Assembly: GCA_947631495.1 (NCBI GenBank)
Contig: CANRLO010000002.1
Coordinates: forward strand, 1-62,828
Direction of reading: 5' to 3'
Length of the DNA: 62,828 nt
Source of the DNA: an uncultured Clostridia bacterium
GTDB lineage: Bacteria > Bacillota > Clostridia > TANB77 > CAG-508
Within the stretch, counting starts at the first letter, position 1. Each line of letters begins with the position of its first letter. A program made the translations under genes and the position numbers. Shown here one piece after another: positions 2,921 through 48,919 of the stretch. Under the pieces are notes generated by a model, which saw nothing but the letters and a program-made list of their open reading frames with translations, was not told the DNA's origin and ran no database searches.

Positions 2921-2950
2921 GACATATATATAATATATATGTCTTTTTTT
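2921..2950 (+). terminator. rho-independent terminator of yebC
   Basis: GACATATATA (2921-2930), loop taa, TATATATGTC (2934-2943), then a T7 run. Confidence 0.85.
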
Positions 2951-2963
2951 GTGTCTCTTTTTG

Positions 2964-3158: not shown

Positions 3159-3204
3159 AAAATGTAAGTCCAAAAGTTACTAAAGGATGGGAAGGAAAGA
3201 AAAA

Positions 3205-29777: not shown

Positions 29778-30941
<1,164 letters not shown>

Positions 30942-32123: not shown

Positions 32124-32147
32124 ATAAAATTAGTTAATGATAAAAAG

Positions 32148-32181
32148 AAACACATATGAAAAAAGCATATGTGTTTTTTTT
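32148..32181 (+). terminator. rho-independent terminator closing locus 1
   Basis: AAACACATATG (32148-32158) pairs with CATATGTGTTT (32166-32176), followed by a T-run; an A-run upstream makes it potentially bidirectional. Confidence 0.85.
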
Positions 32182-32227
32182 ATATTCATTTTTTAATTTG
32201 AAATCATATACTTTTACATACAAAAAA

Positions 32228-32253
32228 TTTCGTAAAGTTAATTCCTTTACGAA
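32228..32253. promoter_or_regulatory. left 26-bp inverted repeat; candidate tyrosine-recombinase core site (9-7-9)
   Basis: TTTCGTAAAGTTAATTCCTTTACGAA. Arms TTCGTAAAG / CTTTACGAA around the asymmetric spacer TTAATTC. Exact reverse complement at 33562-33587. Confidence 0.7.
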
Positions 32254-32263
32254 CATCAAAACT

Positions 32264-32292
32264 ATTATAGCTGAAAAGAAAACAAAAAGCAA
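32264..32292 (-). promoter_or_regulatory. outward-facing promoter-like element at the left edge of the invertible segment
   Basis: On the minus strand: TTGCTT (32292-32287), 17 bp, TATAAT (32269-32264). The predicted start is ~10 bp from the left repeat. AT-rich background makes chance hexamers common. Confidence 0.35.
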
Positions 32293-32556
32293 GTTTTTTC
32301 TATAAATTTCGTCAAAAAATAAGTAGAAATATGTTTTCATAATGCAATATATAAAAAAATCAAAATTAGCTATTATAGTATAATTTTGTAAGTATAACCT
32401 TTTAAATAACGAAAGAAAACTAATTTATAAATAAAATTTTTAAACTAAGTTGCCCACAGACAGAGGCAAAATAAGGATAAAAACTAGTTTGAAAGAAATA
32501 ATCTTTCGTTGCTATGTTTGCCTTGTGAGCAAAGCCAGAAAGGGATGTAATTTAAA

Positions 32557-33495
32557 ATGAACATTTTAACACTAAAAGTAAAAAAGAATAAATCAATAAC
32601 ATTAGAAGAAATTATTGATAGTTGGCTACTCTACAAAAGATGTAAACTAAAGGAATCTACTTATTATCGTTACCAGTATATTATAAAAAAATATATATTG
32701 CCTAGCTTAGGAAAGGAAAAAATAGTATACCTACAACATTATGATTTTAATCTTTTTATCGATAAACTGATAGATAGTTTATCACCTAAAACGGCAAAAG
32801 ATATTATCATTGTACTAAAATCAATTCTAAAATATGCAGAAAGAAAATATAATTTTGATTTTAAACTAGATTTAATAACACTACCTAAATATCAACCAGA
32901 AGAAATCCAAATTTTAAGTAAAAAAGAGAAACAACAATTAGAAGAAATGTGTTATAAAAATGCAACATTCCGTAATATTGGCATTCTAATTTGCTTGAAT
33001 ACAGGAATACGCATTGGAGAAATTTGTGCTCTTACATGGAAAAACATTAACTTAGAAAGAGATACCTTAGTTATTAATAAAACAATGCAAAGAATTTATA
33101 AGGATAAAAATAATACAATTATTTTAATAGATACTCCAAAAAGTAAAAAATCGATTCGTGAAATACCAATTTCAAAAAAACTCCATAACCTTTTATTAGA
33201 AATAAAAAATAACAATAAGTTTAATGGAGATGAATTTTTTCTCACAGGGGAAAATAACAAATTTATAGAACCTAGAAATTATCAATATATGTTTAAAAAA
33301 TGCCTGAACGAATGTAATATAAAGGAATATAACTTTCATGCATTAAGACATACATTTGCTACAAACTGTATTGAAATAGGAATGGATGTAAAATCTTTAA
33401 GTGAAATTTTAGGACATGCAAGCGTTGATATTACTTTAAATAAATATGTTCATTCTTCTTTAAAAACGAAAAAAATTTATTTGGAAAAACTATAA
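32557..33495 (+). CDS. tyrosine site-specific recombinase (phage-integrase family)
   Basis: N-terminal SAM-like domain. Catalytic signature RIGEICALTW (R), HALRHTFAT (HxxR), LGHASVDITLNKYVH (H...Y). Confidence 0.88.
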   Translation: MNILTLKVKKNKSITLEEIIDSWLLYKRCKLKESTYYRYQYIIKKYILPSLGKEKIVYLQHYDFNLFIDKLIDSLSPKTAKDIIIVLKSILKYAERKYNFDFKLDLITLPKYQPEEIQILSKKEKQQLEEMCYKNATFRNIGILICLNTGIRIGEICALTWKNINLERDTLVINKTMQRIYKDKNNTIILIDTPKSKKSIREIPISKKLHNLLLEIKNNNKFNGDEFFLTGENNKFIEPRNYQYMFKKCLNECNIKEYNFHALRHTFATNCIEIGMDVKSLSEILGHASVDITLNKYVHSSLKTKKIYLEKL

Positions 33496-33549
33496 AAACT
33501 ATTATGAAGTGAAATACAAATTTTCATTTCATAATAGTTTTTTCTTTTT
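33496..33549 (+). terminator. strong rho-independent terminator after the recombinase gene, still inside the invertible segment
   Basis: AAACTATTATGAA (33496-33508) pairs with TTCATAATAGTTT (33528-33540), plus an inner TGAAA/TTTCA pairing, then TTTCTTTTT. Confidence 0.85.
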
Positions 33550-33561
33550 GCCTAAAAGTAT

Positions 33562-33587
33562 TTCGTAAAGGAATTAACTTTACGAAA
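33562..33587. promoter_or_regulatory. right 26-bp inverted repeat; candidate recombinase core site in opposite orientation
   Basis: TTCGTAAAGGAATTAACTTTACGAAA; the spacer GAATTAA is the reverse complement of the left spacer. Confidence 0.7.
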
Positions 33588-33616
33588 AAAAATTAGGTGA
33601 TAGCAAATGGAAGAAA

Positions 33617-34873
33617 ATGCAGTCAAAAAGCGGGTTTTATACTACAACTTACAAAATACGACTTTATACAAATCATTTAAATTACATCAAAAATACTGAA
33701 GTAATTTATAACGAAACAATTCTAAAGTACTACAACTTATTATTTGACAATTTAGAATTTTTAAACCTATCAAATCAAAATTGTTTGAGAGAGTTAGAAA
33801 AATTAACAATCAAAAGTAAAACAGGAGAAAAGCCAAAAGATTATATAGAACAAGATATTCCTATGTACTTAAGGAGAGCAGCTATCAATCAAGCAATCGG
33901 ATATGTTAGAAGTTATCAAACTGCACTTAATAATAAAATGTCAAGTAATAATCTAGAAAATACAGAATTGCTTAGGAATTCATTAAATGAAAAACAAAAA
34001 ACAAAGATAACGATTAATAAAGCAACAGCATTTCATTCTTCAATTATGCTCTACAAAGGAATGTATAAAGACTTATATGAAGATAGAATCACAATAAAAC
34101 TTTTTGATGGCGAAAGTTGGAGATGGTTTCCAACCAAAATAAAAGGTAGAAAAATTAATGAAAATGCAGAGATTCTATCACCAAGTATTGTTGTAAAAAA
34201 AGACCTTGTTATGCTTCATCTTCCAGTAAAAGAAGAAATAGAAGATGTAACACCAATAAAAGAAAGGATGCAACAAGAACATATTCAAGTATGTGGCATT
34301 TCGTTTTCAAACACAGATAGTTTTGCTATATGTGTGGTACTTGATGAAAGCAAAAACATAATAAAAGCAAAATTTATTAAAGGTGGAAACGAATATAGAA
34401 ATGCAACACACACCATATTAGCAAAAATTAAAAAACATAAACAAAATGGACAAAAATTTTCACAAAGAGACCATAAACATTATTGGGAAAAATTAAACAA
34501 CATAAGTGATTATTATGCTCACAAAGTAAGTAAAGAAATTATTAATTTTTGTATTGAAAACAATGCTCCAATTATTGCTATAGCAGACATGGAAGAAGAT
34601 GTAAGTAAGCATTTTGGCAAGAAAGTAGGAAAGTATAGTCCAATTTATCTAAGAAAAAGGATTATTTCCTATTTACAATATAAGGCATTCAAACAAGGAA
34701 TTCTCATTACAAAAGTAAGAAGAAACTATACTGCAAGCAAGTGCTATATATGTAGGACAAATATCAAAAGGAACGGAAGCAAATACAATTGTGAGAATGG
34801 GCATCAAGGAGATTATTTTTTTAATTCAGCAATGAATATAGCAATCATGTGCTTAAAAAAATTTGGCAAATAA
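33617..34873 (+). CDS. TnpB-like (IS605 OrfB family) protein, RuvC catalytic positions apparently substituted
   Basis: YKIRLYTN N-terminal motif, zinc ribbon CYICRT...CENGH, NSAMNIA tail. GISFS replaces GIDLG, IIAIADM replaces hhhhEDL, DYFFNSAM replaces D.NAA. No adjacent tnpA. Confidence 0.7.
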   Translation: MQSKSGFYTTTYKIRLYTNHLNYIKNTEVIYNETILKYYNLLFDNLEFLNLSNQNCLRELEKLTIKSKTGEKPKDYIEQDIPMYLRRAAINQAIGYVRSYQTALNNKMSSNNLENTELLRNSLNEKQKTKITINKATAFHSSIMLYKGMYKDLYEDRITIKLFDGESWRWFPTKIKGRKINENAEILSPSIVVKKDLVMLHLPVKEEIEDVTPIKERMQQEHIQVCGISFSNTDSFAICVVLDESKNIIKAKFIKGGNEYRNATHTILAKIKKHKQNGQKFSQRDHKHYWEKLNNISDYYAHKVSKEIINFCIENNAPIIAIADMEEDVSKHFGKKVGKYSPIYLRKRIISYLQYKAFKQGILITKVRRNYTASKCYICRTNIKRNGSKYNCENGHQGDYFFNSAMNIAIMCLKKFGK

Positions 34874-34903
34874 TTTCAAAATAAATTTAAAACTAAAAAT
34901 TAA

Positions 34904-34972
34904 ATTTGAATAGAATTCAAATCCTAAGAAGAAACACTTAGGTATGCAATAAAACTATATGCTTTATTGCAT
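34904..34972 (+). ncRNA. three consecutive stem-loops 3' of the tnpB-like gene; candidate guide-RNA (omega-RNA-like) scaffold end
   Basis: ATTTGAAT/ATTCAAAT (34904-34922), CCTAAG/CTTAGG (34923-34942), ATGCAATAAA/TTTATTGCAT (34944-34972). Confidence 0.3.
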
Positions 34973-35079
34973 GTGTTGAATATCGCAATTTTACATAGTC
35001 AAAGTGTAAATAAAGAACGGAGTAATCCAACAATATTCAGAGATGCCAAATTGAATCATTTCAAAAAGAGGGGACAAAC

Positions 35080-35718
35080 ATGAAAAAGGGTTATAAATAC
35101 ATAAAAAGAGGAATAGATATTCTATTTTCTACAATTGCACTAATTTTATTGTTACCAATTTTTATAGTAGTAGCGATTGCAATAAAAATAGATTCAGAAG
35201 GACCAATTATATATAAGTCAAAAAGAATAGGTAAAAACTGCAAACCATTTTATACATATAAATTTAGAAGTATGAAAACAAACAGAAAAGAATTAGATGG
35301 AACATTAACACATGAACAAATGGTTACAAGAGTAGGAAAATTCATAAGAAAGACAAGCATTGATGAACTTCCACAATTAATAAATATTTTAAAGGGAGAT
35401 ATGAGTTTTATTGGGCCTAGACCATGGATTCCAGAATACTATGAATGGTTTACAGATGAGCAAAAAAGAAGGGTAAGTGTATTACCAGGAATTTCAGGTT
35501 TAGCTCAAGTAAAAGGGAGAAACGGAATTAATATCTTTAAAAAAATAGAGTATGACTTAGAGTATGTAGATAACATAAGTTTGTGGTTAGATATAAAGCT
35601 TGTTTTTGAAACTATTGTACAAGTGTTTAAAAAGACAAATGCAGAAATATCAGAACAGGGAATAAAGGAAGAAATTGAAGATTTAAAGAAACAAGAAAGT
35701 TATTCAAAAGCAATATAA
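35080..35718 (+). CDS. priming sugar-phosphate transferase (small PGT, CapM/PglC-like), locus 2
   Basis: KRGIDILFS...PIIYKSKRIG...YKFRSM...TRVGKFIRKTSIDELPQLINILKGDMSFIGPRP. Confidence 0.88.
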   Translation: MKKGYKYIKRGIDILFSTIALILLLPIFIVVAIAIKIDSEGPIIYKSKRIGKNCKPFYTYKFRSMKTNRKELDGTLTHEQMVTRVGKFIRKTSIDELPQLINILKGDMSFIGPRPWIPEYYEWFTDEQKRRVSVLPGISGLAQVKGRNGINIFKKIEYDLEYVDNISLWLDIKLVFETIVQVFKKTNAEISEQGIKEEIEDLKKQESYSKAI

Positions 35719-35774
35719 TGTTAGAAATTAGGGCTCTGTAATAAAATTATTAAGTGTTCAAAATAGGAGTTGAA

Positions 35775-36992
35775 ATGATGAAAATATTAGTTGTATGTCA
35801 ATATTATTATCCGGAACCACTAAGAATTACTGATATATGTGAACAACTTGTTATTGCCGGTCATGAAGTAACCGTGATAACTGGTTATCCAAATTATCCT
35901 ATGGGTGATATATATGATGGATATAAAAACAAGGATCATGTTAATGAAACAGTAAACGGTGTAAAAATTCATAGATGCTATACTATTCCAAGAAAAAGAG
36001 GAGCAATAATGAGAATTTTAAATTATTATAGTTTTGCTTTATCTTCAGTTTTATATGCAAAAAAAATAAAACAAGATTATGATGTTGTTTTTGTTAATCA
36101 ATTGTCTCCAATAATGATGGCAAATGCTGGTATAGTATATAAGAAAAAACATCATAAACAACTTATTTTGTACTGTTTAGATATTTGGCCAGAAAGTTTA
36201 ACGGTAGGAGGAATAAAAAAGAAATCATTGATATTTAAATATTTTCACAAGGTTTCAAAAAAAATATATACTCAATGTGACAAAATTTTAATTACTTCTA
36301 AAATGTTTGAAGATTATTTAAAAGAAAATTTTAATATTGCAGATGAAAAAATATTTTATTTGCCACAATATGCTGAAGAAATATTTGACAAAGAAGAGTG
36401 TAAAAAAATCAATAATAATGAAGAAATAAATCTGGTATTTGCTGGAAATATTGGAAAGGCTCAAAGTATTGATACTATATTAGAGGCTGCAAATATTTTA
36501 AAAAATAATAGAAAAATTATTTTTCATATTATAGGTGATGGGTCAGAATATAAACATTGTTGTATGAAAATAGCTGAATTACATTTAAATAACATTATTA
36601 TGCATGGAAGAAAGCCTCTTAGTGAAATGATAAGATATTATAAAATGGCTGATGCCATGTTAATAACTTTATCTGGAAAATCTTTAATATCAAAAACATT
36701 GCCCGGAAAAATTCAATCGTATATGGTTGCAGGAAAGCCAATAATTGGTGCTGCTAATGGAGAAACTAAACTTGTAATAGAAGAAGCAAATTGTGGGTTT
36801 TGTGGAAGTGCAGACAATGCGGATGAATTAGCAGAAAACATAGTTAGATTTATAAACTGTGAAAATAAAGAAGAATTAGGAATAAATTCATATAAATACT
36901 ATGAGCAAAATTATTCTAAAGAAAAATTCTTAAATAAATTAGTCGAAGAATTAAAAAAAGTTAAGGGGGAAAAAATAAATGAGCATTTTTAA
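35775..36992 (+). CDS. GT4 glycosyltransferase, WbuB-like (L-FucNAc transferase type)
   Basis: MKILVVCQYYYPEPLRITDICEQLVIAGHEVTVITGYPNYP start typical of WbuB/WcaI-like enzymes; sits directly before fnlABC-like genes. Confidence 0.7.
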   Translation: MMKILVVCQYYYPEPLRITDICEQLVIAGHEVTVITGYPNYPMGDIYDGYKNKDHVNETVNGVKIHRCYTIPRKRGAIMRILNYYSFALSSVLYAKKIKQDYDVVFVNQLSPIMMANAGIVYKKKHHKQLILYCLDIWPESLTVGGIKKKSLIFKYFHKVSKKIYTQCDKILITSKMFEDYLKENFNIADEKIFYLPQYAEEIFDKEECKKINNNEEINLVFAGNIGKAQSIDTILEAANILKNNRKIIFHIIGDGSEYKHCCMKIAELHLNNIIMHGRKPLSEMIRYYKMADAMLITLSGKSLISKTLPGKIQSYMVAGKPIIGAANGETKLVIEEANCGFCGSADNADELAENIVRFINCENKEELGINSYKYYEQNYSKEKFLNKLVEELKKVKGEKINEHF

Positions 36993-37989
36993 AGATAAAG
37001 TATTATTGATAACCGGAGGAACTGGCTCATTTGGAAATGCAGTATTAAAAAGATTTTTAGATACGGATATTAAAGAGATTAGAATATTTTCTCGTGATGA
37101 AAAGAAACAAGAAGATATGAGAATTAAATATAAAAATGATAAAATTAAATTTTACATAGGCGATGTAAGAGATTACAGAAGTATTGATGACGCTATGGAT
37201 GGAGTAGATTATATTTTTCATGCAGCAGCTTTAAAACAAGTACCTAGTTGTGAATTTTATCCTATTCAAGCTGTAAAAACTAATATTTTAGGTACAGAAA
37301 ATGTTTTAGAAGCAGCTATTAATCATAATGTAAAAAAGGTAATTGTTTTATCAACAGATAAAGCTGCTTATCCAATTAATGCTATGGGTATGAGTAAGGC
37401 AATGATGGAAAAAGTGGCTGTAGCTAAAGGAAGAGATTTAAGAACTAACCAAACAATTATCTGTAGAACAAGATATGGAAATGTTATGGCTTCGCGTGGA
37501 AGTGTAATTCCTCTATTTTGTGAACAAATTGAACAAGGCAAGCCTTTAACTATAACTAATCCAGATATGACTAGATTTATGATGACTTTAGAGGATGCTG
37601 TAGATTTGGTTATATATGCCTTTGAAAATGGAAAACAAGGAGATTTATTTGTTCAAAAAGCTCCTGCTGCAACAATAGATACTTTAGCAAAGGCTGTTAA
37701 AGAATTAAAACATAGTGATTTACCTATCAATTGTATTGGAACAAGACATGGCGAAAAACTTTTTGAAGTTTTAGTAACAAAAGAAGAAATGGTTAATGCT
37801 GAGGATATGGGGAATTACTATAGAATCCCTGCAGATAATAGAAATTTAAATTACCAAAAGTATGTAGATCAGGGAAATGCTGATATAGAAAATATTGTTG
37901 ATTACAATTCACACAATACTTATAGACTTAATATAGAAGAAATGAAAAAATTATTACTAAAATTAGATTTATTTAATGATTGTAAATAA
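36979..37989 (+). CDS. fnlA: UDP-GlcNAc 4,6-dehydratase/5-epimerase (FnlA/CapE/WbjB type)
   Basis: KVLLITGGTGSFGNAVLKRFL start, SDR with the STDKAAYPINAMGMSKAMME motif; first of a three-gene L-FucNAc set. Confidence 0.82.
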   Translation: MSIFKDKVLLITGGTGSFGNAVLKRFLDTDIKEIRIFSRDEKKQEDMRIKYKNDKIKFYIGDVRDYRSIDDAMDGVDYIFHAAALKQVPSCEFYPIQAVKTNILGTENVLEAAINHNVKKVIVLSTDKAAYPINAMGMSKAMMEKVAVAKGRDLRTNQTIICRTRYGNVMASRGSVIPLFCEQIEQGKPLTITNPDMTRFMMTLEDAVDLVIYAFENGKQGDLFVQKAPAATIDTLAKAVKELKHSDLPINCIGTRHGEKLFEVLVTKEEMVNAEDMGNYYRIPADNRNLNYQKYVDQGNADIENIVDYNSHNTYRLNIEEMKKLLLKLDLFNDCK

Positions 37990-37999
37990 GGAGAAGTTA

Positions 38000-39139
38000 A
38001 TGAAAGTACTAGTAACTGGTTCAAATGGGTTTGTAGGAAAAAACTTAATAAGCAATTTAAGTTTAAATGATGATATTGAAATATATAAATTTGATATAGA
38101 TAATACATTAGAAGAATTAGATGCATATACCAAAACTTGTGATTTTGTATTCCATTTAGCTGGAATAAATAGGCCACAAAATCCACAGGAATTTATGGAA
38201 GGTAATTTTGGATTTACAACAACATTATTAGAATATCTAAAAAAAAATAATAATAAATGCCCAATAATGATATCATCATCTATTCAAGCTGAACTAGACA
38301 ATGATTATGGCAAGTCTAAAAAAGCTGGCGAAGAATTATTATTTAACTATGGCAAAGATAATAATGTAAAAGTATTTGTATATAGATTTCCAAATTTGTT
38401 TGGAAAGTGGTGTAAACCTAACTATAATAGCGTAATAGCCACTTGGTGTTATAATATTTCACATAATATAGAGGTAAGTATAGATGTTCCTTCAAAGGAA
38501 TTACAATTAGCATATATAGATGATGTTTGTGCAGAACTTATTAAATGTTTAAATAATGAAGAAACTAAAGATGGAAGGTATTGTATTGTTCCTACTACTT
38601 ACAAAAAATCATTAGGAAATATATTATCTTTAATTAAATCTTTTAAAAATAATGATAGGGGAATTATGGTCCCATCTACTGGTGATACATTTACTAAAGA
38701 TTTATATGCTACCTATATAAGTTATGTACCTTTAGAAGAGTTAGTAGTTGATTTAGAAGAGCATAGAGATAATAGAGGTGTATTTTGCGAGCTATTTAGA
38801 ACTAAAGAAGCAGGCCAAGTGTCAGTTTCAACAACAAATCCTAATATTGTTCGCGGTGGACATTATCATAATACTAAAATGGAAAGATTTATTGTAATTA
38901 AAGGTAAAGCAAAAATTGAATTTGAACATGTAATAACTCATGAAAAATATAAATTTGAAGTAAGTGGAGATAAATTACAATATGTAACTATACCTGTTGG
39001 ATATCAACATAGCATCAATAATATTGGAGATGGTGAATTAGTTTTAATACTTTGGGCTAATGAATTGTTTGACCCTAATATACCGGATACTTATGTAATG
39101 AAGGAGGAAAAAAGTGAAACTGATAAAAGATTACAGTAA
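38000..39139 (+). CDS. fnlB: FnlB/CapF/WbjC-type reductase with C-terminal cupin domain
   Basis: MKVLVTGSNGFVGKNL Rossmann start and C-terminal GGHYH...cupin-like region. AGGAGA RBS before ATG 38000. Confidence 0.75.
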   Translation: MKVLVTGSNGFVGKNLISNLSLNDDIEIYKFDIDNTLEELDAYTKTCDFVFHLAGINRPQNPQEFMEGNFGFTTTLLEYLKKNNNKCPIMISSSIQAELDNDYGKSKKAGEELLFNYGKDNNVKVFVYRFPNLFGKWCKPNYNSVIATWCYNISHNIEVSIDVPSKELQLAYIDDVCAELIKCLNNEETKDGRYCIVPTTYKKSLGNILSLIKSFKNNDRGIMVPSTGDTFTKDLYATYISYVPLEELVVDLEEHRDNRGVFCELFRTKEAGQVSVSTTNPNIVRGGHYHNTKMERFIVIKGKAKIEFEHVITHEKYKFEVSGDKLQYVTIPVGYQHSINNIGDGELVLILWANELFDPNIPDTYVMKEEKSETDKRLQ

Positions 39140-40301
39140 CATTAAGTGGAAAGAAAACGGAAAATTAAAATTGCTTATTATAGTGGGAACTCGACCAGAA
39201 ATAATAAGGTTATCAGCAGTTATAACAAAGTGTCGAAAATATTTTGATTGCATTTTAGCTCATACGGGTCAAAATTATGATTACAACTTAAATGGTGTTT
39301 TTTTTAAAGATTTAAAACTTGAAAATCCTGAAGTTTATTTAGACACAGTAGGTAATGATTTAGGAGAAACAGTTGGAAATATTATTGCCACTTCCTATAA
39401 ATTAATGGAACAAATTAAACCAGATGCATTACTAATACTAGGAGATACAAATAGTTGTTTATCTGCTATAAGTGCAAAAAGATTACATATACCAATATTC
39501 CATATGGAAGCAGGAAATAGATGTAAAGATGAATGTTTACCAGAAGAAACAAATAGGAGAATTGTTGATATTATTTCTGATGTGAATTTAGCTTATTCAG
39601 AACATGCTAGAAAGTATTTACATGAATGTGGTCTTCCTAAAGAAAGAGTATATGTAACAGGATCTCCAATGGCAGAAGTATTGCAAAATAATATCAAAGA
39701 TATTGAAGCATCAAATATACTTACTAGATTAAAACTAGAGCCTAAAAAGTATATTTTACTTTCTGCTCATAGAGAAGAAAATATTGATACTAAAGAAAAC
39801 TTTGAAAATCTATTTACTGCTATCAATAAGATGGCTGAAAAGTATGATATGCCAATACTATATTCATGTCACCCAAGAAGTAAAAAAAGACTTGAATCAA
39901 GTGGCTTTAAGCTTGATGAAAGAGTAATAATGCATTCTCCACTTGGTTTTCATGATTACAATAATTTGCAAATGAATGCATTTGCAGTAGTAAGTGACTC
40001 AGGGACTCTTCCAGAAGAATCAAGTTTTTATATAAGTATAGGAAAGCCATTTCCAGCTATTTGTATTAGAACAAGTACTGAAAGACCTGAAGCACTAGAT
40101 AAAGCAACGTTTATTTTAGCAGGAATAAATGAAAAAAATTTACTTCAAGCAGTTGATACGGCAGTAGAAATGAATAAGGATAACAATATTGGAATACCAG
40201 TCCCAGATTATGTAGAACAGAATGTTAGTATAAAAGTGGTTAAAATAATTCAAAGTTATACAAGCATAGTAAATAGAGTTGTATGGAAAAACGAAAAATA
40301 G
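39114..40301 (+). CDS. fnlC: non-hydrolysing UDP-N-acetylhexosamine 2-epimerase (FnlC/CapG/WbjD type)
   Basis: LLIIVGTRPEIIRLS, LGDTNS and HMEAGNR motifs. GTG start with an AAGGAGG RBS. Confidence 0.82.
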   Translation: MKLIKDYSNIKWKENGKLKLLIIVGTRPEIIRLSAVITKCRKYFDCILAHTGQNYDYNLNGVFFKDLKLENPEVYLDTVGNDLGETVGNIIATSYKLMEQIKPDALLILGDTNSCLSAISAKRLHIPIFHMEAGNRCKDECLPEETNRRIVDIISDVNLAYSEHARKYLHECGLPKERVYVTGSPMAEVLQNNIKDIEASNILTRLKLEPKKYILLSAHREENIDTKENFENLFTAINKMAEKYDMPILYSCHPRSKKRLESSGFKLDERVIMHSPLGFHDYNNLQMNAFAVVSDSGTLPEESSFYISIGKPFPAICIRTSTERPEALDKATFILAGINEKNLLQAVDTAVEMNKDNNIGIPVPDYVEQNVSIKVVKIIQSYTSIVNRVVWKNEK

Positions 40302-40962
40302 GTTGTGTGAAAAAAATAGATGACATAACGACTATGATTTTAATAAAAAAGAAGAAAAAATATAGAAAAATGTATTAAATTATAAATAAGAAAATGTGAG
40401 TAAAATTAAGAAAAGCATGATATAAAAAGAAGTGTAATAAGTCTGTACGGAATGACGATAGAATTAGAAATTTATAAAAAATACCAAATAAAGAGAAAAA
40501 GCATGAGCCAAAGAACTATGAACAAATGATAAGAGTGAAAAAGAGTATAAGTAAATGTAAAGAATATGAGCTTTGTAAAAAAAAATTACAGAAATAGATG
40601 AGTATATTTTTTATTAAAATTAGAAAGTTTAGAAATAAATATTTTGAAAATAGTAAGCATTTTTAACAATATCAATGCCAACATAAAATATAAAAATACC
40701 ACTTTTCAAAAATATTAATAATGATGATAAGCTTCAATATGTGTTTATTCTTATAGATTTGTGTGACATAAAAGCTCAAAGATAAAAAGACTGAGGTTTA
40801 TTCAACCAATAAATAATTAAAAGAAAAAAATGAAAAATCTAAAGAAAAAACATATTTATTTTAAAAATATAAGTCAAATATAGATAATTAAATTTAGTTG
40901 TTGATAACTTTATTATAAATAACGGTATAATATTTCAGATAAAAAAGGAGAATAAAGAAATT

Positions 40963-42129
40963 ATGAAAATAGCAGTAGCAGGAATAGGATATGTAGGACT
41001 ATCATTAGCAACACTATTAAGTCAAAAAAATGAAGTAGTTGCATTAGATATAGTACCAGAAAAAGTAGAGATGATAAACAATAGAATATCACCTATCAAA
41101 GATAAAGAAATAGAAGAATATCTACAAACTAAAAATCTAAATTTAAGAGCAACTCTAGATTATAAAGATGCTTTTAATGGGGCTCAATATGTAATAATAA
41201 GTACACCAACTAATTATGATGATGTTACAAATTATTTTGATACATCAAGTGTAGAAGATATTATACAAAAGGTAATTAGTATGAATATCGACACAACAAT
41301 GGTAGTAAAGTCAACAATACCAGTAGGATTTATAGAAAACATGAAAGAAAAATATAATATAGATAATATAATGTTTTCACCAGAATTTTTAAGAGAAGGA
41401 CGAGCTTTATACGATAATTTATATCCATCAAGAATTATAGTAGGAGAAAAAAGTAAAAGAGCAGAAATATTTGCAAACTTATTAAAGGATTGTTCATTAA
41501 AACAAGATGTAACAATAAAATATATGAATAGTACAGAGGCAGAAGCGGTTAAACTATTTGCCAATACATACTTAGCATTAAGAGTATCATATTTTAATGA
41601 GTTAGATACATATGCAGAGATAAATGGATTAAATACACAAGATATTATTGAAGGAGTAGGGTTAGACCCTAGAATAGGAACTCATTATAATAATCCATCC
41701 TTTGGGTATGGTGGTTATTGTTTGCCAAAAGATACAAAGCAATTATTAGCAAATTATAGTAAAGTGCCACAAAATCTAATAGAAGCTATTGTAAAATCAA
41801 ATGATACCAGAAAAGACCATATAACAAATATGATAATGAAAAAAGAACCTAAAGTAGTAGGAATATATAGATTAACTATGAAAACAAATTCTGATAACTT
41901 CAGATGTAGTGCAATACAAGGTATTATTGAAAGACTAAAAAATAAAAACATTGAAATTATTATATATGAACCAACATTAAAAGAGAATACATTTAATGAA
42001 TGCAAAGTAATCAATGATTTTAATGAGTTTAAAAATAAAGCAGATGTTATTTTAGCTAATAGGATAGATGAAAGTATAAAAGAAGTAAAAGATAAAGTAT
42101 ATACTAGAGATTTATATAGTGAAGATTAA
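40963..42129 (+). CDS. ugd: UDP-glucose 6-dehydrogenase, copy 2
   Basis: Differs from copy 1 at 15 of 388 residues (counted from the supplied translations); 9 of the differences fall in the last ~65 residues. Confidence 0.92.
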
Positions 42130-42203
42130 TAAAAAAATATTATGTAAGGATTTAAATACTTATTTCAAAGTGAAAAAATCATAAAAGTACTGATAAAAAG
42201 TAC

Positions 42204-42223
42204 GGTTGAATGTCAATAGTTAG
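42204..42223 (+). repeat. 20-bp direct repeat, copy 1 (GGTTGAATGTCAATAGTTAG)
   Basis: Exact second copy at 48088-48107. Confidence 0.9.
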
Positions 42224-42248
42224 AAAGAAATATGAAAGTGGTGATAAG

Positions 42249-43451
42249 ATGAATATATTAGCATTAACAAGTGTATATCCACAACCAGATGATGGTGAAA
42301 CTCCTGCAACATATACTGTACAATATTTTTGTGAACAATGGGTTAAAAAGGGTAATAATGTTATAGTAATTCAAAATTCGAGTAGATTCCCAAAATTTTT
42401 TTATAAATTATCAAAAAAATTTGAAAAGAAATTAGCAGCTAGATTAGGTTTTAATGTTCCAAAAAAGGAATCAATAAAAAATATATATAGAGTGGAAAAT
42501 GGTGTCAAAATATATAGATTTCCTATGAAGAAAATAATTCCACATTCAAAATTTCGAAAAGGAGAAATAACTAGACAAGTTGATATTATTGTTAAAACAT
42601 TAAAAGATAATCATTTTAAACCAGATATTATTATTTCTCATTGGGTAAATCCACAAATTGATATTATTATAAAATTAAAAAAATTTTATAATGCAAGAAC
42701 TTCACTAGTATTTCATAATGATTGTACGAAATACAATATAGAAAAATTAGCATTAAAAGAAAAAATATTAAATATTGATGCAATAGGTTGTAGGTCATTA
42801 AAAAGTAGTAAAGATGTTCAAAATCTTCTAAACTTAAAAAAAGAACCATTTGTATGCTATTCTGGTGTGCCAGATGAGCTTGCATATAAATATAAAGACA
42901 AATTACCAAGTAAGAAAAAAAATTCATTTATATATGTTGGAAGATTAGTTAAATATAAAAATGTTGATAAAATATTAATAGCACTTTCAAGAGCTTTTCC
43001 TCAAAAAAATTTTGAATTGAAAGTAATTGGTGTAGGAGGAGAATTAAAATCTCTCATTAATTTATCAAAATCGTTAAATATTGAAAAAAATGTTTGTTTT
43101 TTGGGACAAATAAGCAGAAAAGAAGTTTTTGATTTCCTTTCAAAAGCTGAAACTTTTATTATGATTAGTAACAATGAAACATTTGGAATGGTTTATTTAG
43201 AAGCTATGGCAATGGGATGTATAACTATTGCATCTAGAAATGGTGGTGTTGATGGTATTATTAAAAATGGTATTAATGGTTATTTATCTGAACAAGGTAA
43301 TGAGAATGATTTAGCTAACGTGATAAATATAATAAAAAAATTGAATAATAAAGAAAAAGAAAATATGCAAATGAATGCAGTCAAAACAGCAATAGAGTTT
43401 TCCGATTCAAAAGTATCAGATAAGTATTTAGATAACATAAAGGAATGGTAA
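42249..43451 (+). CDS. GT4-family glycosyltransferase
   Basis: ETFGMVYLEAMAMGCITIASRNGGVDGIIKNGINGYL motif. Start at 42249 (MNILALTSVYP) or 42210. Confidence 0.78.
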   Translation: MNILALTSVYPQPDDGETPATYTVQYFCEQWVKKGNNVIVIQNSSRFPKFFYKLSKKFEKKLAARLGFNVPKKESIKNIYRVENGVKIYRFPMKKIIPHSKFRKGEITRQVDIIVKTLKDNHFKPDIIISHWVNPQIDIIIKLKKFYNARTSLVFHNDCTKYNIEKLALKEKILNIDAIGCRSLKSSKDVQNLLNLKKEPFVCYSGVPDELAYKYKDKLPSKKKNSFIYVGRLVKYKNVDKILIALSRAFPQKNFELKVIGVGGELKSLINLSKSLNIEKNVCFLGQISRKEVFDFLSKAETFIMISNNETFGMVYLEAMAMGCITIASRNGGVDGIIKNGINGYLSEQGNENDLANVINIIKKLNNKEKENMQMNAVKTAIEFSDSKVSDKYLDNIKEW

Positions 43452-43455
43452 AATT

Positions 43456-44577
43456 ATGAATAAACAAATAGAATTTATTATTTTTTGGATAACAATAATT
43501 ATAGTTATATTATTTTCATTCATTAGTTATAAGATTAAGAAAAAGGAACAAAAAATTATTGTGTTTTTATTTATGGCAGTATTTTGTTTTTTATATTCGT
43601 ATAGAACTTTAGGTATGGATATTAAAAATTATATTCAATCATATGACTATTTTACTGTAGACCACTTATTAAGAAGATTAGAATTACCATCCCTATTTTC
43701 TTATGAATATGAGCCTTTATATTTTTTGATATTATTTATATCAAAAAATATGCTTTTTACTTTTCAACAATGTCAATTGATATTTTATTCAATTTCTAGT
43801 CTTATATTTTTTTACTTTATTTGTAAAAAAACTAATTATCCATTAATAGCTTATTTTTTATTTATGATAGAAATGATGTTTCATTTTGACTTAACAAGAT
43901 TCTTTATTGCTGCTTCTTTTATATGTATTGGATTTTATTGTAATAAAAAATTTTTTAAATACTTTTTCTATTTTATTGCATTTTGCTTTCATTATTCAAG
44001 TATATTCTTCTTAATTTTAGAATTATTGACTAAACTATTTGCTAAATTAAAAAATAAAAAATTAATTCTTATTTTTTATATGCTTATATTTATATTTTTT
44101 ATACTTTTGAAATTTGTTGATTTATCATTTTTAAGTAATTCTAACTTTAAGCTTTTATTTAAATTTCAATATTACATGACAAATAAAAATTCATCTTTTT
44201 CAGATATTCCTGTTATGAGATTTTTATACATATTAATAAATGTTTATCCGATTTATATGAGTTATAAATTAGTTAAGCTATTAAATAAAGTAGATATATT
44301 AGATAAGCATAGAAATATGATTTCTACTATTTCTTCAATTACTCAAAATGGCATTTTTTTAAGTTTGTTATTTCTTTTATTTTTTCAAAATTATCAATTG
44401 GCATTTAGAGTAGTACTATTATCATATTTTATGATTTTTATTCCATTATCTGATATTGTTGGTAATGGCTTGAAAAATGGGAAAATTTCAAAGAATGCAT
44501 TAAAAATTATTTTTAATTTATTCTTTTTTGATATATTAATGTCAGCCTATTATATTGGAATATCAATTGTTTATTAA
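43456..44577 (+). CDS. wzy: EpsG-family / Wzy-type polymerase-like membrane protein, locus 2
   Basis: Polytopic, F/I/L-rich, ~370 aa; locus context. Confidence 0.55.
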   Translation: MNKQIEFIIFWITIIIVILFSFISYKIKKKEQKIIVFLFMAVFCFLYSYRTLGMDIKNYIQSYDYFTVDHLLRRLELPSLFSYEYEPLYFLILFISKNMLFTFQQCQLIFYSISSLIFFYFICKKTNYPLIAYFLFMIEMMFHFDLTRFFIAASFICIGFYCNKKFFKYFFYFIAFCFHYSSIFFLILELLTKLFAKLKNKKLILIFYMLIFIFFILLKFVDLSFLSNSNFKLLFKFQYYMTNKNSSFSDIPVMRFLYILINVYPIYMSYKLVKLLNKVDILDKHRNMISTISSITQNGIFLSLLFLLFFQNYQLAFRVVLLSYFMIFIPLSDIVGNGLKNGKISKNALKIIFNLFFFDILMSAYYIGISIVY

Positions 44578-44738
44578 AAAAATAACTAAAATTGAAAGTG
44601 AATTTATACTAAATTAATCATTCTAACAAAATTTATAAACTATATTATACAACTAATTGTATAATAAATATTAAATAGAAAGGATTAATCAATTATAGAA
44701 TAATTACTATTTCTATAAAATGATTTATTAGGTGAAAT

Positions 44739-45653
44739 ATGATATCACAAATATACCATTTTTTAGATGGAAAATATGAATCTAAAATTTATATTTATTA
44801 TTATAGATTTTTTAAATTAATAATTAATATTTTTTATCCTCTGTATATAAGAATAACTAAAAGAAAGAAATTAAATAGTAAATCTAATTTAATAGTGTCA
44901 CTAACATCATTTCCAACAAGAATAAAAAAAATATATTTAGTAATAGAGTCATTATTAAGACAAAATGTTATGCCTAAAAAAATTATTCTTTATTTATCTT
45001 TAAAACAATTTAATGGATATGAGGACTTACCTAAAAAATTAAAAAAATTATGTGAAAAAGAGCTACTAAATATAAAGTTTGTTGATGAAGACTTTAAATC
45101 TCATAAAAAGTATTTTTATACTGTGAAAGATATGAACTGCGATTTTATTACAGTTGATGATGATATGATTTATCCTGAAGATTTAATTGAAATATTTTTT
45201 AATGGTCAATTTAAATATAAAAATACAATTTGTTGTTTATGGGCAGATAAAATAACAGTTTTTAATCATAAGGTAGATTTATACAAAAATTGGAAAATAA
45301 ACACTAAAAAATGTGAACCACGCTATGATATATTGCCTATTGGTTGTGCAGGAATATTTTATCCTAAAAATTGTTTTCAAAAAGATCGATTGTTAAATTA
45401 TAAAGATTTCATGAATTTATGCCCAAGTGCTGATGATTTATGGTTAAAACTTAATTCTGTTTTGAGTGGTATTAAATCAGTGCAACTTGATGATTATCAT
45501 CATTTTGTATTTATAGATTTGCTAATAAAAAATAATAAGAAATTGTGTAATGAAAATGTTAAAAATTCAAAAAATGATGAACAATTAGAAAAAATGTTGA
45601 TAAAATATCCTAATTTTGTTAAAGAAATTGAAACGGAGGTAAAAAATGAGTAA
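44739..45653 (+). CDS. putative glycosyltransferase (SLTSFPTR-type)
   Basis: LIVSLTSFPTRIKKIYLVIESLLRQNVMPKKIILYLS and VDDDMIYP (DxD-like) motifs. Confidence 0.45.
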   Translation: MISQIYHFLDGKYESKIYIYYYRFFKLIINIFYPLYIRITKRKKLNSKSNLIVSLTSFPTRIKKIYLVIESLLRQNVMPKKIILYLSLKQFNGYEDLPKKLKKLCEKELLNIKFVDEDFKSHKKYFYTVKDMNCDFITVDDDMIYPEDLIEIFFNGQFKYKNTICCLWADKITVFNHKVDLYKNWKINTKKCEPRYDILPIGCAGIFYPKNCFQKDRLLNYKDFMNLCPSADDLWLKLNSVLSGIKSVQLDDYHHFVFIDLLIKNNKKLCNENVKNSKNDEQLEKMLIKYPNFVKEIETEVKNE

Positions 45654-47070
45654 GCTTAAGTTGAATGTTATATACAATTTTTTATATCAATTTTTTGTTT
45701 TGTGTTTTCCGTTAATAGTTGCACCTTATTTATCAAGGACACTAGGCGCAAATGGGATAGGTATTTATTCATATAATTATTCTATTGCATATTATTTTGT
45801 ATCTTTTGCAGCACTTGGATTAAGTAATTATGGAACAAAAGTAATATCATCCAAATTAAATGAATCAAAGGAAGTGTTATCAAAGACATTTTGCGAAATA
45901 TATTGCGTACAATTTATTTTTGCTATTTTGTCCATAATTCTTTATGTGTGTTATCTTACAATATCAAAATTTAATATATATTCTGTTATTTTTAGCTTTT
46001 ATGTTTTATCATCGCTATTTGATATTACTTGGTTCTTTTTTGGAATAGAAGACTTTAAAAGTGTTTTAAGAAAAAATATATTGATTAAGATTATAACAAC
46101 TATTTTGATATTTAGTTTTATTCATTCTGATAGTGATATCAAAATCTATTGCTTAATTATGTCAATCAGTTTTTTAATATCTCAATTATTACTTTGGATA
46201 AGATTAAAGAGATATGTACAATTTGTAAAAGTAAATATTTTAAAATCAATGAAGAATCATTTGCCTGGAAATTTTAAATTATTTATTCCAGTTATTGCTG
46301 TAAGTATTTACAAATATATGGATAAAATCATGCTAGGTAGTATTTCTTCAAAATTAAATTTAGGGTATTATGAAAATGTTGAAAAAATTGTTAATATTCC
46401 AGTAGCTTTTATTACAGCACTTGGAACCGTTATGTTATCAAGAATTTCAATGTTACATGCAAACGGAAATATAAAAAAAAGGGAAGAATATTTACATACG
46501 TCAATTGTTTTTACAGGATTTTTATCATTTGCAATGATTTTTGGCATTTTGGGAATAGCAGATTTATTGATACCAATATATTTTGGAAAAGGATTTTTAC
46601 CATGTATTAATCTTTGCTATTATATGATTCCAACAGTTATTTTTCTTGGATTATCAAATGTTATAAGGACACAGTATTTAATTCCTTTAAACGAAGAGAA
46701 AATTTATATTTTATCCGTATGCTATGGTGCAATAATTAATTTTATATTGAATAGTATTTTAATTCCTATAAAATCAGCTAGCGGTGCAGCTTTTTCTACT
46801 TTAATAGCTGAAGTTGTTGTTTTTTTGTATCAGTTTATAAAAACAAAGAAAAAGATTAATATTAATAAAGAATTAAAACAAATTGTGGGATTTATGATTA
46901 TTGGAATTATTATGTATATTACAATCATAAATATTCATTTTTTTAGTAATAATATTTATAATTTACTTATAAGAATTTTTATAGGTTCTATAATTTATAT
47001 ATGTTTGTCGTTGATTTATATATCAACAGTATTGAAGGAATATAAGAAATATTTTTATTTAAAAAATTAA
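45646..47070 (+). CDS. wzx: Wzx-type polysaccharide flippase, locus 2
   Basis: NVIYNFLYQFF..PLIVAPYLSRTLGANGIGIYSY N-terminus parallels the locus-1 Wzx; polytopic. Confidence 0.8.
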   Translation: MSKLKLNVIYNFLYQFFVLCFPLIVAPYLSRTLGANGIGIYSYNYSIAYYFVSFAALGLSNYGTKVISSKLNESKEVLSKTFCEIYCVQFIFAILSIILYVCYLTISKFNIYSVIFSFYVLSSLFDITWFFFGIEDFKSVLRKNILIKIITTILIFSFIHSDSDIKIYCLIMSISFLISQLLLWIRLKRYVQFVKVNILKSMKNHLPGNFKLFIPVIAVSIYKYMDKIMLGSISSKLNLGYYENVEKIVNIPVAFITALGTVMLSRISMLHANGNIKKREEYLHTSIVFTGFLSFAMIFGILGIADLLIPIYFGKGFLPCINLCYYMIPTVIFLGLSNVIRTQYLIPLNEEKIYILSVCYGAIINFILNSILIPIKSASGAAFSTLIAEVVVFLYQFIKTKKKININKELKQIVGFMIIGIIMYITIINIHFFSNNIYNLLIRIFIGSIIYICLSLIYISTVLKEYKKYFYLKN

Positions 47071-47088
47071 AGAAAATGGAGAATAATT

Positions 47089-48027
47089 ATGAAAAAAATT
47101 AAAATGATAATTAGAAATTTTGACCCCTTATATAGAGTATATTCAAAATATATTGAAAAAAAATACAAGAAAAAATATGAAAAAGCTGTAAAAAGTGATA
47201 GTTTGTTAAAGTTGCTTGATAATAATTATTATAAAAAAACAGGAAATAGATTATCGAACCCTCCAAAAACCTACACAGAAAAAATTCAATATTCAAAATT
47301 ATTTGCTCTTTCACCAGAAAAAACATTATTATCAGATAAATATATGGTAAGAGAATGGGTTAAGAAAAAAATTGGAGATAAATATTTAATTCCATTATTA
47401 GGTGTATGGAATAATTTTGAAGAAATTGATTTTTCATCTTTACCTGATAAATTTGTGTTAAAAACAAATCATGCAAGTGGAACAAATGTTATTGTCAAAT
47501 CAAAAAAGGATATTAATTTAAAAAAATTAAAGAAAAAATTTAACTTTTGGTTACATCAAAACTTTGCTTTTGCTGGAAAAGGATATGAAATGCATTATTC
47601 TAATATAAAGCCCAAAATAATATGTGAAAAATATGTTGTTGATAAAAAAGGTGAATTAAATGATTATAAGTTTTTATGTTTTAATGGTAAACCTTATTAT
47701 TGTTGGGTTGATATTGATAGAAATACTAATCATAAAAGGAATGTCTATGACATGAATTGGCAATTACAAGAATGGAATCAATTTTTTCCAAATAGTAATA
47801 GAAATGTTAGTAAGCCTGAAAATTTTGACGAGATGGTAAGAGTAGTAAAGGCATTATCAGAAGGATTCCCACATGTTAGAGTTGATTTATATAATGTAGA
47901 TGGCAAGATATACTTTGGAGAGATGACATTTACCAATGGTAAAGGATATGAACGAATTTATCCTGAAAAGTATGATGAAGAATTGGGAAAATTATGGAAA
48001 GAAGATTTTAATATAACAAAAAAATAA
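47089..48027 (+). CDS. TupA-like ATP-grasp amidoligase family protein, locus 2
   Basis: FVLKTNHASG, DYKFLCFNGK and RVDLYNVDGKIYFGEMTFT; a divergent paralogue of 27746-28603. Confidence 0.7.
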   Translation: MKKIKMIIRNFDPLYRVYSKYIEKKYKKKYEKAVKSDSLLKLLDNNYYKKTGNRLSNPPKTYTEKIQYSKLFALSPEKTLLSDKYMVREWVKKKIGDKYLIPLLGVWNNFEEIDFSSLPDKFVLKTNHASGTNVIVKSKKDINLKKLKKKFNFWLHQNFAFAGKGYEMHYSNIKPKIICEKYVVDKKGELNDYKFLCFNGKPYYCWVDIDRNTNHKRNVYDMNWQLQEWNQFFPNSNRNVSKPENFDEMVRVVKALSEGFPHVRVDLYNVDGKIYFGEMTFTNGKGYERIYPEKYDEELGKLWKEDFNITKK

Positions 48028-48087
48028 TTTTCTTGTAATATTTTAAAATAAATAATGGTTCTATAATATTAGTTGAGACAAAAAATT

Positions 48088-48107
48088 GGTTGAATGTCAA
48101 TAGTTAG
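48088..48107 (+). repeat. 20-bp direct repeat, copy 2
   Basis: GGTTGAATGTCAATAGTTAG, identical to 42204-42223. Confidence 0.9.
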
Positions 48108-48146
48108 GGTAGAAAACTTTGAAAGCTTTCTACCTAAGCTTTTTTA
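48108..48146 (+). terminator. terminator-like hairpins closing locus 2
   Basis: GGTAGAAA pairs with TTTCTACC, and alternatively AAAGCTT pairs with AAGCTTT, followed by a T-run. Confidence 0.5.
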
Positions 48147-48919
48147 ATGAAATTTAATGTTTACATCTAAAAATAGCTGAAAATATGTAATTGAAAGGAT
48201 ATTTAAATGACCAATTAATAAATTGGCTATTTAAAGTTATTAAATTTATTTTTTTATCTGTTTAATAATAAAATTCTAGTTTTTAAATGTAGAATATCTA
48301 GTTTTCTATAATCAACACGAAGTTTTTCAGAGTAATTTATTAAAATATAAGATAGTTCGTCTTTTTGGTCATCTATTTTTAAATTACACTGCCTAGAAAG
48401 AAGTAATTTTCTTGAATGTTTAAAATAAATTCTTTTACTTTTAGGTAAGTTTTTTTGTACTTCAATTCTAATTTTATTAACAGAATCACAAGCATATCTA
48501 AAGAAATTTTTTAAAAATTAAGTATAGAATTAATAGAAAAAATTAAAAAAAAGGAAACAACAAAGGTTAAAAATATTAGTGAACTTAATAAAAATGTATG
48601 GAATATAGTATTAGATAAAGAGAAAAATCACCTGCTTAAAACAATATAATATAGTTATGTTAAATAGTATAGTTACTAGCAAAAACTATACTATTTTTTT
48701 ATATAATATTTAATAAGCAAATTTTTCTAAACCAATTGACGATTTTTAAAACATAATATATACTAAGAAAAAAGTTAGAAATTGAAGCAAGTAATATATA
48801 ATAAAGTCGAAAAATGTCGAACGATTCTTATTGAAAATTATTGTAAAATATTGACAATTGACATAATACAGAATAAAATAATAAATGAAAAATAAACTAA
48901 GAGAAAAGGAGAAATTTAT

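Follow-up and report, generated by a model that had tools for sequence, protein, structure and literature searches.

Phase-variable capsules shape phage resistance, immune recognition and colonisation, and they are well mapped in Bacteroides and poorly in Clostridia. The capsule invertons of Bacteroides are flipped by Mpi/Tsr recombinases, Mpi being a global invertase of the serine type, and their operons begin with the genes of UpxY/UpxZ. In the hin/hix system of Salmonella, the serine invertase Hin depends on an enhancer bound by Fis, and fljA encodes a repressor of the alternative flagellin. Promoter switches operated by tyrosine recombinases are known as well, such as fimS of E. coli (FimB/FimE) and those of RecV in C. 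difficile; with tyrosine recombinases, inverted site cores lead to inversion rather than excision. In the present work, we analysed a stretch of 62,828 nt from an uncultured Clostridia bacterium (contig CANRLO010000002.1, hereafter the window) and we consider that its segment 32228-33587 is probably a self-contained invertible promoter cassette, which would act as an ON/OFF switch for the polysaccharide locus downstream (locus 2). The cassette encodes its own tyrosine recombinase and is followed by the gene of a nuclease-dead TnpB and by a structured RNA. An original prediction, made from the letters of the sequence, had proposed such a switch, and it is supported by relatives found in both orientations, by the conservation of an outward promoter (P_out) and by intact sites and enzyme. 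Its term "Hin-like" holds for the topology and fails for the enzyme, which is a tyrosine recombinase and not a serine invertase. It had also left the choice between an ON/OFF and a capsule-type switch; the evidence fits ON/OFF control of locus 2 better than a swap between this locus and the polysaccharide locus on the other side (locus 1).

Published work has come close to this arrangement. In a survey of a defined gut community, the Clostridia inverton group 139 and recombinase group 35 comprise invertons of ~230 bp with a tyrosine recombinase nearby but outside. The main text of Altae-Tran et al. (PNAS 2023, PMC10691335) reports that inactivated TnpB has become associated with integrase-like tyrosine recombinases at least three times independently, the upstream recombinase lying "in a seemingly random orientation" and being "often surrounded by inverted repeats", with repeats sometimes present without a recombinase. 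Moreover, groups of TldR/dCas12f proteins have been linked to fliC, oppF, Clostridial flagellin/csrA and sigma-E (Wiegand et al., bioRxiv 2023.11.30.569447; PMC12259090).

The cassette of the window is delimited by two copies of one site. The left, leader-side copy, TTTCGTAAAGTTAATTCCTTTACGAA at 32228-32253, is the exact reverse complement of the right copy at 33562-33587 (26/26 positions, 1308 nt between), as had been claimed. It reads TTTCGTAAAG-TTAATTC-CTTTACGAA, that is, 9-bp palindromic arms around an asymmetric 7-bp core, and the cores TTAATTC and GAATTAA put the two sites in inverted orientation, which bears out the arm-spacer-arm layout with opposed cores described in the original prediction. 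The right site is followed by an A-run, by a ribosome-binding site (RBS), AGGTGA (33595-33600), and by the start of the TnpB-like gene. When the arm-N7-arm pattern was searched with up to 3 mismatches, these two places were the only ones in the 62.8-kb window, without any third site, compared with a shuffle expectation of 0.01 and with at least two matches in 0/100 shuffles. Inverted 9-bp arms around a 7-bp spacer are the layout of a core-type site, and across the family the arms measure 9-11 bp and the centre 5-7 nt. The original prediction had advised a search of related genomes for the site; in loci from 80 species-level genomes, a homologous inverted pair of at least 18 bp brackets the recombinase gene in 47 of the 73 informative cases. 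Upstream, the left site is usually 90-450 bp away from the recombinase start, and the right one is at most 300 bp past its stop (~70-110 bp in the closest relatives). Site pairs of their own are found in relatives whose recombinases are 38-87% identical, and the arms (TTTCGTAAAG, TTTCGCAGAG, TGTCGTAGAG, TCGCTTAGT and others) co-vary with the recombinase protein, which is the pattern expected of an enzyme and its own recognition sites. In the wider recombinase family, two loci have three site copies, L068 (5523-5543 with 6977-6997 and 7080-7100) and L072 (5538-5562 and 5616-5636 with 7009-7033); this would allow alternative, shufflon-like inversions or a small extra inverton beside the recombinase.

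The sole substantial open reading frame (ORF) between the two sites is the recombinase gene (32557-33495, + strand). Its product of 312 aa has SAM-like N-terminal and catalytic domains (PF00589, 6e-29; PF14659, 6e-10), and the R/HxxR/H..Y signature noticed earlier is confirmed: R152, H261, R264, H287 and Y297 (H261xxR264) are all present and are invariant in 25 homologues. This integrase-fold catalytic domain with its full residue set places the protein in the tyrosine (phage-integrase family) recombinases, and its best solved relative is Tn1549 Int (3e-19), with which the catalytic motifs align. No serine recombinase domain (PF00239) appeared in the domain search, which returned just PF00589, PF14659 and a sub-threshold PF22022. 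NCBIfam cut-offs exclude an invertase of the FimB/FimE type (NF007370, 20.9 bits against a cut-off of 221; NF007371, 18.7 against 222), a Xer resolvase (XerA, 104 bits against 220; XerC, 76.9 against 335; XerD, 65.5 against 330) and an integron-type recombinase. The other ORF of 312 aa in the window (47089-48027), considered as a second recombinase, is unrelated and encodes a TupA-like ATP-grasp protein. Recombinase homologues of ~300-315 aa number in the thousands, and the element of the window belongs to a large family of cassettes in gut Clostridia with a common layout: site, leader, recombinase, terminator and inverted site.

Wider-family cassettes without dead TnpB adjoin varied genes (L026, L032, L050, L064, L067, L075; L025, L048, L058). 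Some of these neighbours are surface-related, with Wzz, Wzy, a DegT aminotransferase and a TadZ-like pilus gene, and others encode a secreted-protease-like protein or a Ser/Thr kinase. Three such cassettes adjoin large serine recombinases, which suggests that some copies of the wider family lie inside mobile elements.

Homologous cassettes truly invert in natural populations. The cassette of L008/L096 (65% identity) has the same neighbours on its two sides and is flipped relative to them, with its leader-side site 16 bp from the TnpB-like start codon; a sister cassette, L101, has the orientation of the window. Among the informative loci that encode a TnpB-like relative in human-gut and other metagenomes, the recombinase lies directly upstream of dead TnpB in 54 of 64, divergent from it in 33 and co-directional in 21, and the divergent and co-directional loci have mirror-image coordinates. 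Both orientations are found even within clusters whose TnpB-like DNA is at least 93% identical (15 vs 10, 4 vs 8 and 2 vs 1). A direct comparison is offered by L110 and L111, whose flanks are collinear at 98% while bases 2458-3972 are an exact inversion at 98.5%; at either repeat, the alignment of this interior and that of the flank share 17 bp. Contig L099 (1238 bp, ~32x coverage) ends on both sides in a stretch of 55 nt, each stretch being the exact reverse complement of the other and made of 29 nt of the TnpB flank and the 26-nt site, and its interior is identical to L096. The usual largest k-mer of metaSPAdes is 55 nt, the length of this overlap, and because a 26-bp repeat is shorter, it should not break an assembly on its own. 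The end structure of L099 thus indicates that reads join the TnpB flank to both cassette ends in one sample; both cassette junctions coexist in this sample. Contigs made of the cassette alone were also found, of 1180 bp, exactly from site to site, in three samples, and of 1187 bp, and a 42-kb contig ends 29 nt outside the site.

Inversion is also seen at loci without an adjacent recombinase. At four of ten such loci (L115, L120, L125, L126), a segment of ~0.5 kb occupies the same position and is flipped between samples (e.g. L120 3492-3967); its boundaries in L120 and L126 are 17-bp inverted repeats, TTCTAAGAAATGCGGCA. At the four loci, the recombinase must act in trans. Of the other six, L166, L182 and L169 have inverted-repeat pairs that end just upstream of the TnpB-like gene. 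One outward promoter, TTGACT-17-TAAACT, is common to the recombinase-less segment and to the cassette of L110, which does contain a recombinase. The invertible promoter is thus the recurring element, with the recombinase riding inside it in most lineages but not in all.

In the window, the predicted outward promoter P_out lies on the minus strand at 32292-32264, with a -35 box TTGCTT (32292-32287), a 17-nt spacer and a -10 box TATAAT (32269-32264) that ends 10 nt from the left site. The sequence is found exactly where the original prediction had placed it, and a like element is common to seven cassettes (window, L087, L093, L096, L101, L009, L010) in the form TTG(C/A)(T/A)(T/A), 16-17 nt, TA(T/A)AAT, ending 10-20 nt from the leader-side site; several of the seven have a TG extended -10. 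The recombinases of these cassettes are 58-100% identical to that of the window and their leaders are otherwise diverged. The leader of the window (32254-32556, + strand), which holds P_out and presumably the recombinase's own promoter, measures 304 nt vs 89-151 nt in relatives, or ~150 bp extra; the promoter scan gave a candidate for the latter promoter, TTGAAA-18-TATGTT with a TG motif, at 32489-32518 (+). The extra stretch (32320-32500) contains a GC-containing hairpin at 32450-32469 that is terminator-like on the minus strand.

The elements that surround P_out differ between the two sides of the cassette. On the minus strand, and in the present orientation, the left site forms a terminator-like stop (32219-32253), a hairpin followed by ATTTTTTGTA. 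Beyond it lies the terminator of ugd, the final gene of locus 1, which is immediately left of the cassette (32143-32181, + strand, 16-bp stem then T-run; also scored on the minus strand at 32176-32148). This succession had been proposed in the original prediction and the terminator scan recovered both elements. A hairpin with T-run is likewise present at the OFF-side flank of L087, L093, L009 and L010, and in 5/6 co-directional loci a T-run follows the site hairpin on the P_out transcript. The scan agreed too on the terminator that closes the recombinase transcript (33495-33549, + strand; placed by the scan at 33495-33541), a hairpin with a 20-bp stem and a T-run, which recurs at the same post-recombinase place in L087 and L008 despite differing sequence. 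At the right junction, the order is site, A-run, AGGTGA and ATG, and because only 29 nt separate the site from the TnpB-like gene, there is no room for another promoter. The earlier expectation that the flipped promoter would read into this gene agrees with the flipped relative L096/L008, where P_out is directly upstream of the TnpB-like RBS and ATG; in L096 the site hairpin is directly followed by them.

Taken together, these elements suggest the following mechanism. The recombinase would recombine the two inverted 26-bp core-type sites and thereby flip the 1308-bp interior, which has the recombinase gene and its own terminator at one end and the outward-facing P_out at the other. In the OFF state, that of the sequenced contig, P_out would face the 3' end of ugd, and its transcript would run into the site hairpin and T-run and then into the ugd terminator, while the recombinase terminator would shield the downstream genes from read-through. 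In the inverted, ON state, the dead-TnpB gene would begin ~60 nt beyond P_out, the site hairpin being then followed by the A-run and the RBS, with no T-run, and transcription would proceed through dead TnpB, the structured RNA and polysaccharide locus 2. We infer that this particular copy still flips, and that P_out is active and the sole promoter for locus 2.

Several observations weigh against this interpretation. The flipped state that the original prediction proposed to look for in relatives was found in homologous cassettes (L008/L096, L110/L111 and the clusters) and not for the exact cassette or its closest clade, where no flipped copy or mixed junction appeared on contigs of 82-100% identity. 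All contigs of this clade, ~20 of them with a complete recombinase gene, are in the predicted OFF orientation; most are at ~3-5x coverage, and assemblies show the majority orientation only, so that a minority state would escape. The exact recombinase is present on six other contigs, all oriented as in the window (7/7 copies with the window itself), and the exact dead-TnpB look-up returned only two of the same six, the exact Ugd look-up no record. A close homologue, P0003, is again co-directional; the end of L005 inside the right site, at ~3x coverage, and the cassette-sized contigs of P0005 and P0006, at 1.3-2x, are uninformative. The promoter itself has a weak -35 box that matches TTGACA at 3/6 positions, and it has no entry in the list of the consensus scan. 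This 26% GC region shows no enrichment of promoter-like matches (14 found vs 24.6 expected from shuffles), and because the scan finds fewer matches than in shuffles, we took the support for P_out from conservation. Lastly, the sequence TTAAAA-18-TAGAAT (34887-34916), a poor promoter-like match shortly before the RNA element, weakly suggests that locus 2 could be transcribed independently of orientation.

An alternative explanation is a frozen or very rarely flipping switch, whose architecture would be inherited and locked in the co-directional state, with locus 2 silent or otherwise driven. This explanation accounts for the single orientation of every contig of the window's strain and of its clade of 82-87% identity, for the dead-TnpB frame, which in the same clade is offset from the RBS-proximal start, and for the weak promoter-like match that precedes the RNA element. 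We nevertheless regard it as unlikely: the two sites are still identical at 26/26 positions, the recombinase ORF is intact with all its catalytic residues, and the hexamers and spacing of P_out are kept across four diverged lineages of the clade. Moreover, the assemblies give the majority orientation, and the ~3-5x coverage of most contigs would hide a minority state.

The cassette might otherwise be a mobile element, in which the recombinase would be an integrase or transposase, the repeats attachment sites or element ends, and the TnpB relative an accessory gene. This is how Altae-Tran et al. (PMC10691335) place the association in their main text, under transposases and with repeats "indicative of attachment sites", and the Tn1549 integrase is indeed the best solved relative of the recombinase, while some wider-family cassettes lie near large serine recombinases. 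However, across species whose proteins are 33-100% identical, the cassette keeps its position between two neighbours of constant kind, and the variation observed is an in-place inversion with unchanged flanks, not presence or absence. With a tyrosine recombinase, inverted cores give inversion, not excision; excision cannot yield a contig such as L099, in which one and the same flank is found at either end, and the repeats do not enclose the TnpB relative, which is devoid of RuvC residues. On these grounds of in-place inversion, fixed position, inverted cores and the L099 ends, we rejected this explanation, which is very improbable. The least probable explanation, to which we give hardly any credence, is that inversion serves another target, by auto-control of the recombinase through uncoupling from an external promoter or by antisense or terminator effects on locus 1: the recombinase is now co-directional with locus 1, P_out is antisense to ugd and the extended 42-nt arms of the post-gene hairpin could fold on the minus strand too, but a strong ugd terminator separates ugd from the cassette, the upstream neighbour is unconserved in relatives whereas the downstream dead TnpB and polysaccharide operon are constant, and the recombinase-less invertons at the same place bear the same promoter.

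If the cassette is an ON/OFF switch for locus 2, the first gene that it would control is that of the TnpB-like protein (33607-34873, + strand; ORF from ATG 33617). The product of 418 aa matches PF07282/PF01385 weakly and the TnpB profile NF040570 with 59.9 bits, below the cut-off of 100. Its structure, predicted with AF2 at a pLDDT of 88.6, is that of a full TnpB/Cas12f fold: Foldseek matched it over the full length to AsCas12f (3e-15, TM 0.61), and also to ISFba1 TnpB, ISDra2 TnpB and natural dCas12f. In sequence and profile alignments, the AsCas12f residues E324 and D401 are replaced by Ala and Phe, and the GIDxG motif reads GIS. The RuvC-I/II columns are never acidic in 35 homologues (33-86% identity), the RuvC-I position resting on the family alignment and motif spacing, as the alignments to solved TnpB begin past that motif; a few distant homologues retain the RuvC-III Asp. 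The loss of the RuvC D-E-D triad (Ala, Phe, GIS) rejects an active TnpB of the IS200/IS605/IS607 type. A tblastn search of the window found no further copy of the gene, and no TnpA partner (Y1 HUH or serine) was present in the window, the only neighbouring recombinase being the integrase-type enzyme. The combination of a full fold and an inactivated nuclease is characteristic of TldR-like proteins.

Wherever it was examined, dead TnpB has the invertible element on one side and, on the other, the gene that opens a polysaccharide operon. This next gene encodes Bac_transf in the AT-rich clade; in human-gut relatives, a CapD-type Polysacc_synt_2 comes first and is followed by an aminotransferase. 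Cassette, dead TnpB and polysaccharide operon stay together as a trio amid otherwise changing neighbours, those on the other side of the cassette differing by species (ugd, flippase, histidine kinase, amidase). From this conserved gene order, we regard the TnpB-like gene as a conserved part of the module and not a passenger insertion sequence (IS) remnant.

The start of the gene deserves a separate comment. The ATG at 33607, well spaced after AGGTGA, does not share the reading frame of the dead-TnpB ORF; the junction of the two frames falls on AAA-AAG-CGG (33625-33633). This out-of-frame start is kept in all four lineages of the window's clade (window, L087, L093, L189), and two of the four have no in-frame ATG before the first beta strand. 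Among 12,159 codons counted in the window, CGG has 0 uses. With a +1 (or -2) shift at AAA-AAG-CGG, the protein would begin with MEENAVK(K)SGFY..., in agreement with more distant relatives, whose N-termini are in frame. AAA-AAG-CGG is a candidate for a programmed frameshift or for a defect shared by the clade.

Right past the stop of dead TnpB lies a structured non-coding RNA element of 135 nt (34919-35053, + strand), recognised by its conservation and covariation and a candidate omega/guide-RNA scaffold. It is more conserved than the protein, and 13 of its 34 predicted pairs show compensatory substitutions. With a covariance model trained on eight copies, it was recovered at an unchanged position in nine loci (96-147 bits), eight of which are training sequences or identical copies, L107 (96 bits) being independent; matches are weaker in distant loci. 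Human-gut relatives have a homologous element sharing the GAATATCGC...ATTCA(G/A)AG helix, with 15/24 pairs compensatory. No Rfam family matched the element or anything else in the window. A conserved structured RNA at or after the 3' end of the gene is a further TldR-like trait, and the anatomy of the element makes it a candidate counterpart of TnpB omega-RNAs and TldR guide RNAs. We did not find a guide target: for an assumed guide position and length, the 16-mers that follow the scaffold have 12 near-matches in the window vs 9.2 expected, and no consistent 16-mer match was seen across six related loci. At L161 (1751-1937), the RNA model matches upstream, not downstream, of the dead-TnpB gene (31 bits, E 0.004), which may be a second or displaced RNA copy.

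By analogy with these systems, we hypothesise that dead TnpB binds DNA under RNA guidance, and our working guess is that the protein and the RNA form an RNA-guided regulator made only in the ON state. That this would be a phase-variable, RNA-guided DNA/RNA-binding regulator which coordinates surface-polysaccharide expression is a tentative proposal, for which we claim rather low confidence. If it were true, the regulator might silence competing loci (as with fljA after hin, or UpxZ in Bacteroides) or be needed for its own operon, and the AAA-AAG-CGG site might add a third, translational gate in the window's clade. Domesticated TnpB would then have a new role in physiology, and one widespread in gut Clostridia.

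The genomic setting is in keeping with the description given in the original prediction, which had placed the cassette between two capsule loci. The window is very AT-rich (25.9% GC) and its closest relatives are metagenome-assembled genomes of uncultured gut Clostridia, many from rabbit gut. On either side, the cassette is flanked by a complete polysaccharide locus that has a Bac_transf initiating transferase, glycosyltransferases and a Wzx-type flippase of its own. Locus 2 (35080-48027, + strand), the predicted regulated operon, opens with the Bac_transf gene (35080-35718, + strand) and continues with glycosyltransferases, epimerases, the Wzx flippase and the TupA-like ATP-grasp gene; past its end, ~0.9 kb (48028-48920) is AT-rich with no ORF of at least 150 aa. 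In locus 1, a perfect (CA)27 repeat (29802-29855) lies in the 5' coding part of an Acyl_transf_3 (O-acyltransferase) gene, whose likely start is ATG 29778, and is read as a His-Thr run. It is the sole long dinucleotide repeat in the window, and the gain or loss of one unit would shift the frame. The tract is likely a slipped-strand ON/OFF switch for capsule acylation; contig L001 begins near it and is hence silent on variation of its length.

Compared with known systems, the locus shares with the capsule invertons of Bacteroides a short invertible promoter directly before polysaccharide operons, a gut commensal host with several such loci, a probable ON/OFF phase variation and first genes of the operon that are regulators, or candidates for it, rather than biosynthetic enzymes. 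It differs from them in that the Bacteroides invertons are small promoter-only segments with the recombinase elsewhere, whereas here a tyrosine enzyme lies inside a 1.36-kb inverton, and in that dead TnpB and an RNA lead the operon in place of the NusG-like UpxY/UpxZ. With hin/hix, the likeness is in the recombinase gene inside the segment and in the outward end promoter, predicted here, that would drive an operon with a regulator (fljA there); but Hin is a serine invertase controlling flagellin genes, whereas here the arm-spacer-arm sites are of the tyrosine type and the genes are polysaccharide genes. As in fimS, RecV and inverton group 139, a tyrosine recombinase would flip a promoter segment between short inverted repeats and phase-vary surface structures; in those systems the recombinase is outside the invertible DNA, whereas here it is inside. 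The cassettes found here measure 1.2-1.5 kb, compared with ~230-650 bp for the invertons given as examples in the survey, and searches limited in inverton size may miss them.

The nearest published precedent is PMC10691335: the loci described in its main text appear to be of the same kind as the cassette and dead TnpB of the window. That text differs from ours in filing them under transposons, with the repeats as attachment sites; its main text has 0 mentions of "polysaccharide", and its recombinase-TnpB passages do not mention inversion switching or phase variation. Beyond that account of the loci, our analysis adds the in-place inversion, the conserved outward promoter and the constant polysaccharide operon downstream. 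Because the promoter inverts, the published "seemingly random" orientation of the recombinase can be explained as the two states of a phase switch, which would give a testable function to inactivated TnpBs so far catalogued as unexplained. Like the TldR/dCas12f groups, the dead TnpB is a ~400-aa nuclease-dead TnpB/Cas12f fold, with a structured RNA immediately downstream and a fixed place by surface-structure genes; it differs in that no described group is tied to polysaccharide loci or recombinases (bioRxiv 2023.11.30.569447; PMC12259090).

To conclude, the module is present in rabbit, human, ruminant and other gut metagenomes and looks like a common Clostridial solution for phase-variable capsules, with a candidate RNA-guided regulator under DNA-inversion control heading polysaccharide operons. 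Promoter inversion and tyrosine recombinase switches were already known; what would be new is a tyrosine inverton that carries its own enzyme and gates an operon headed by a conserved dead TnpB with an RNA.

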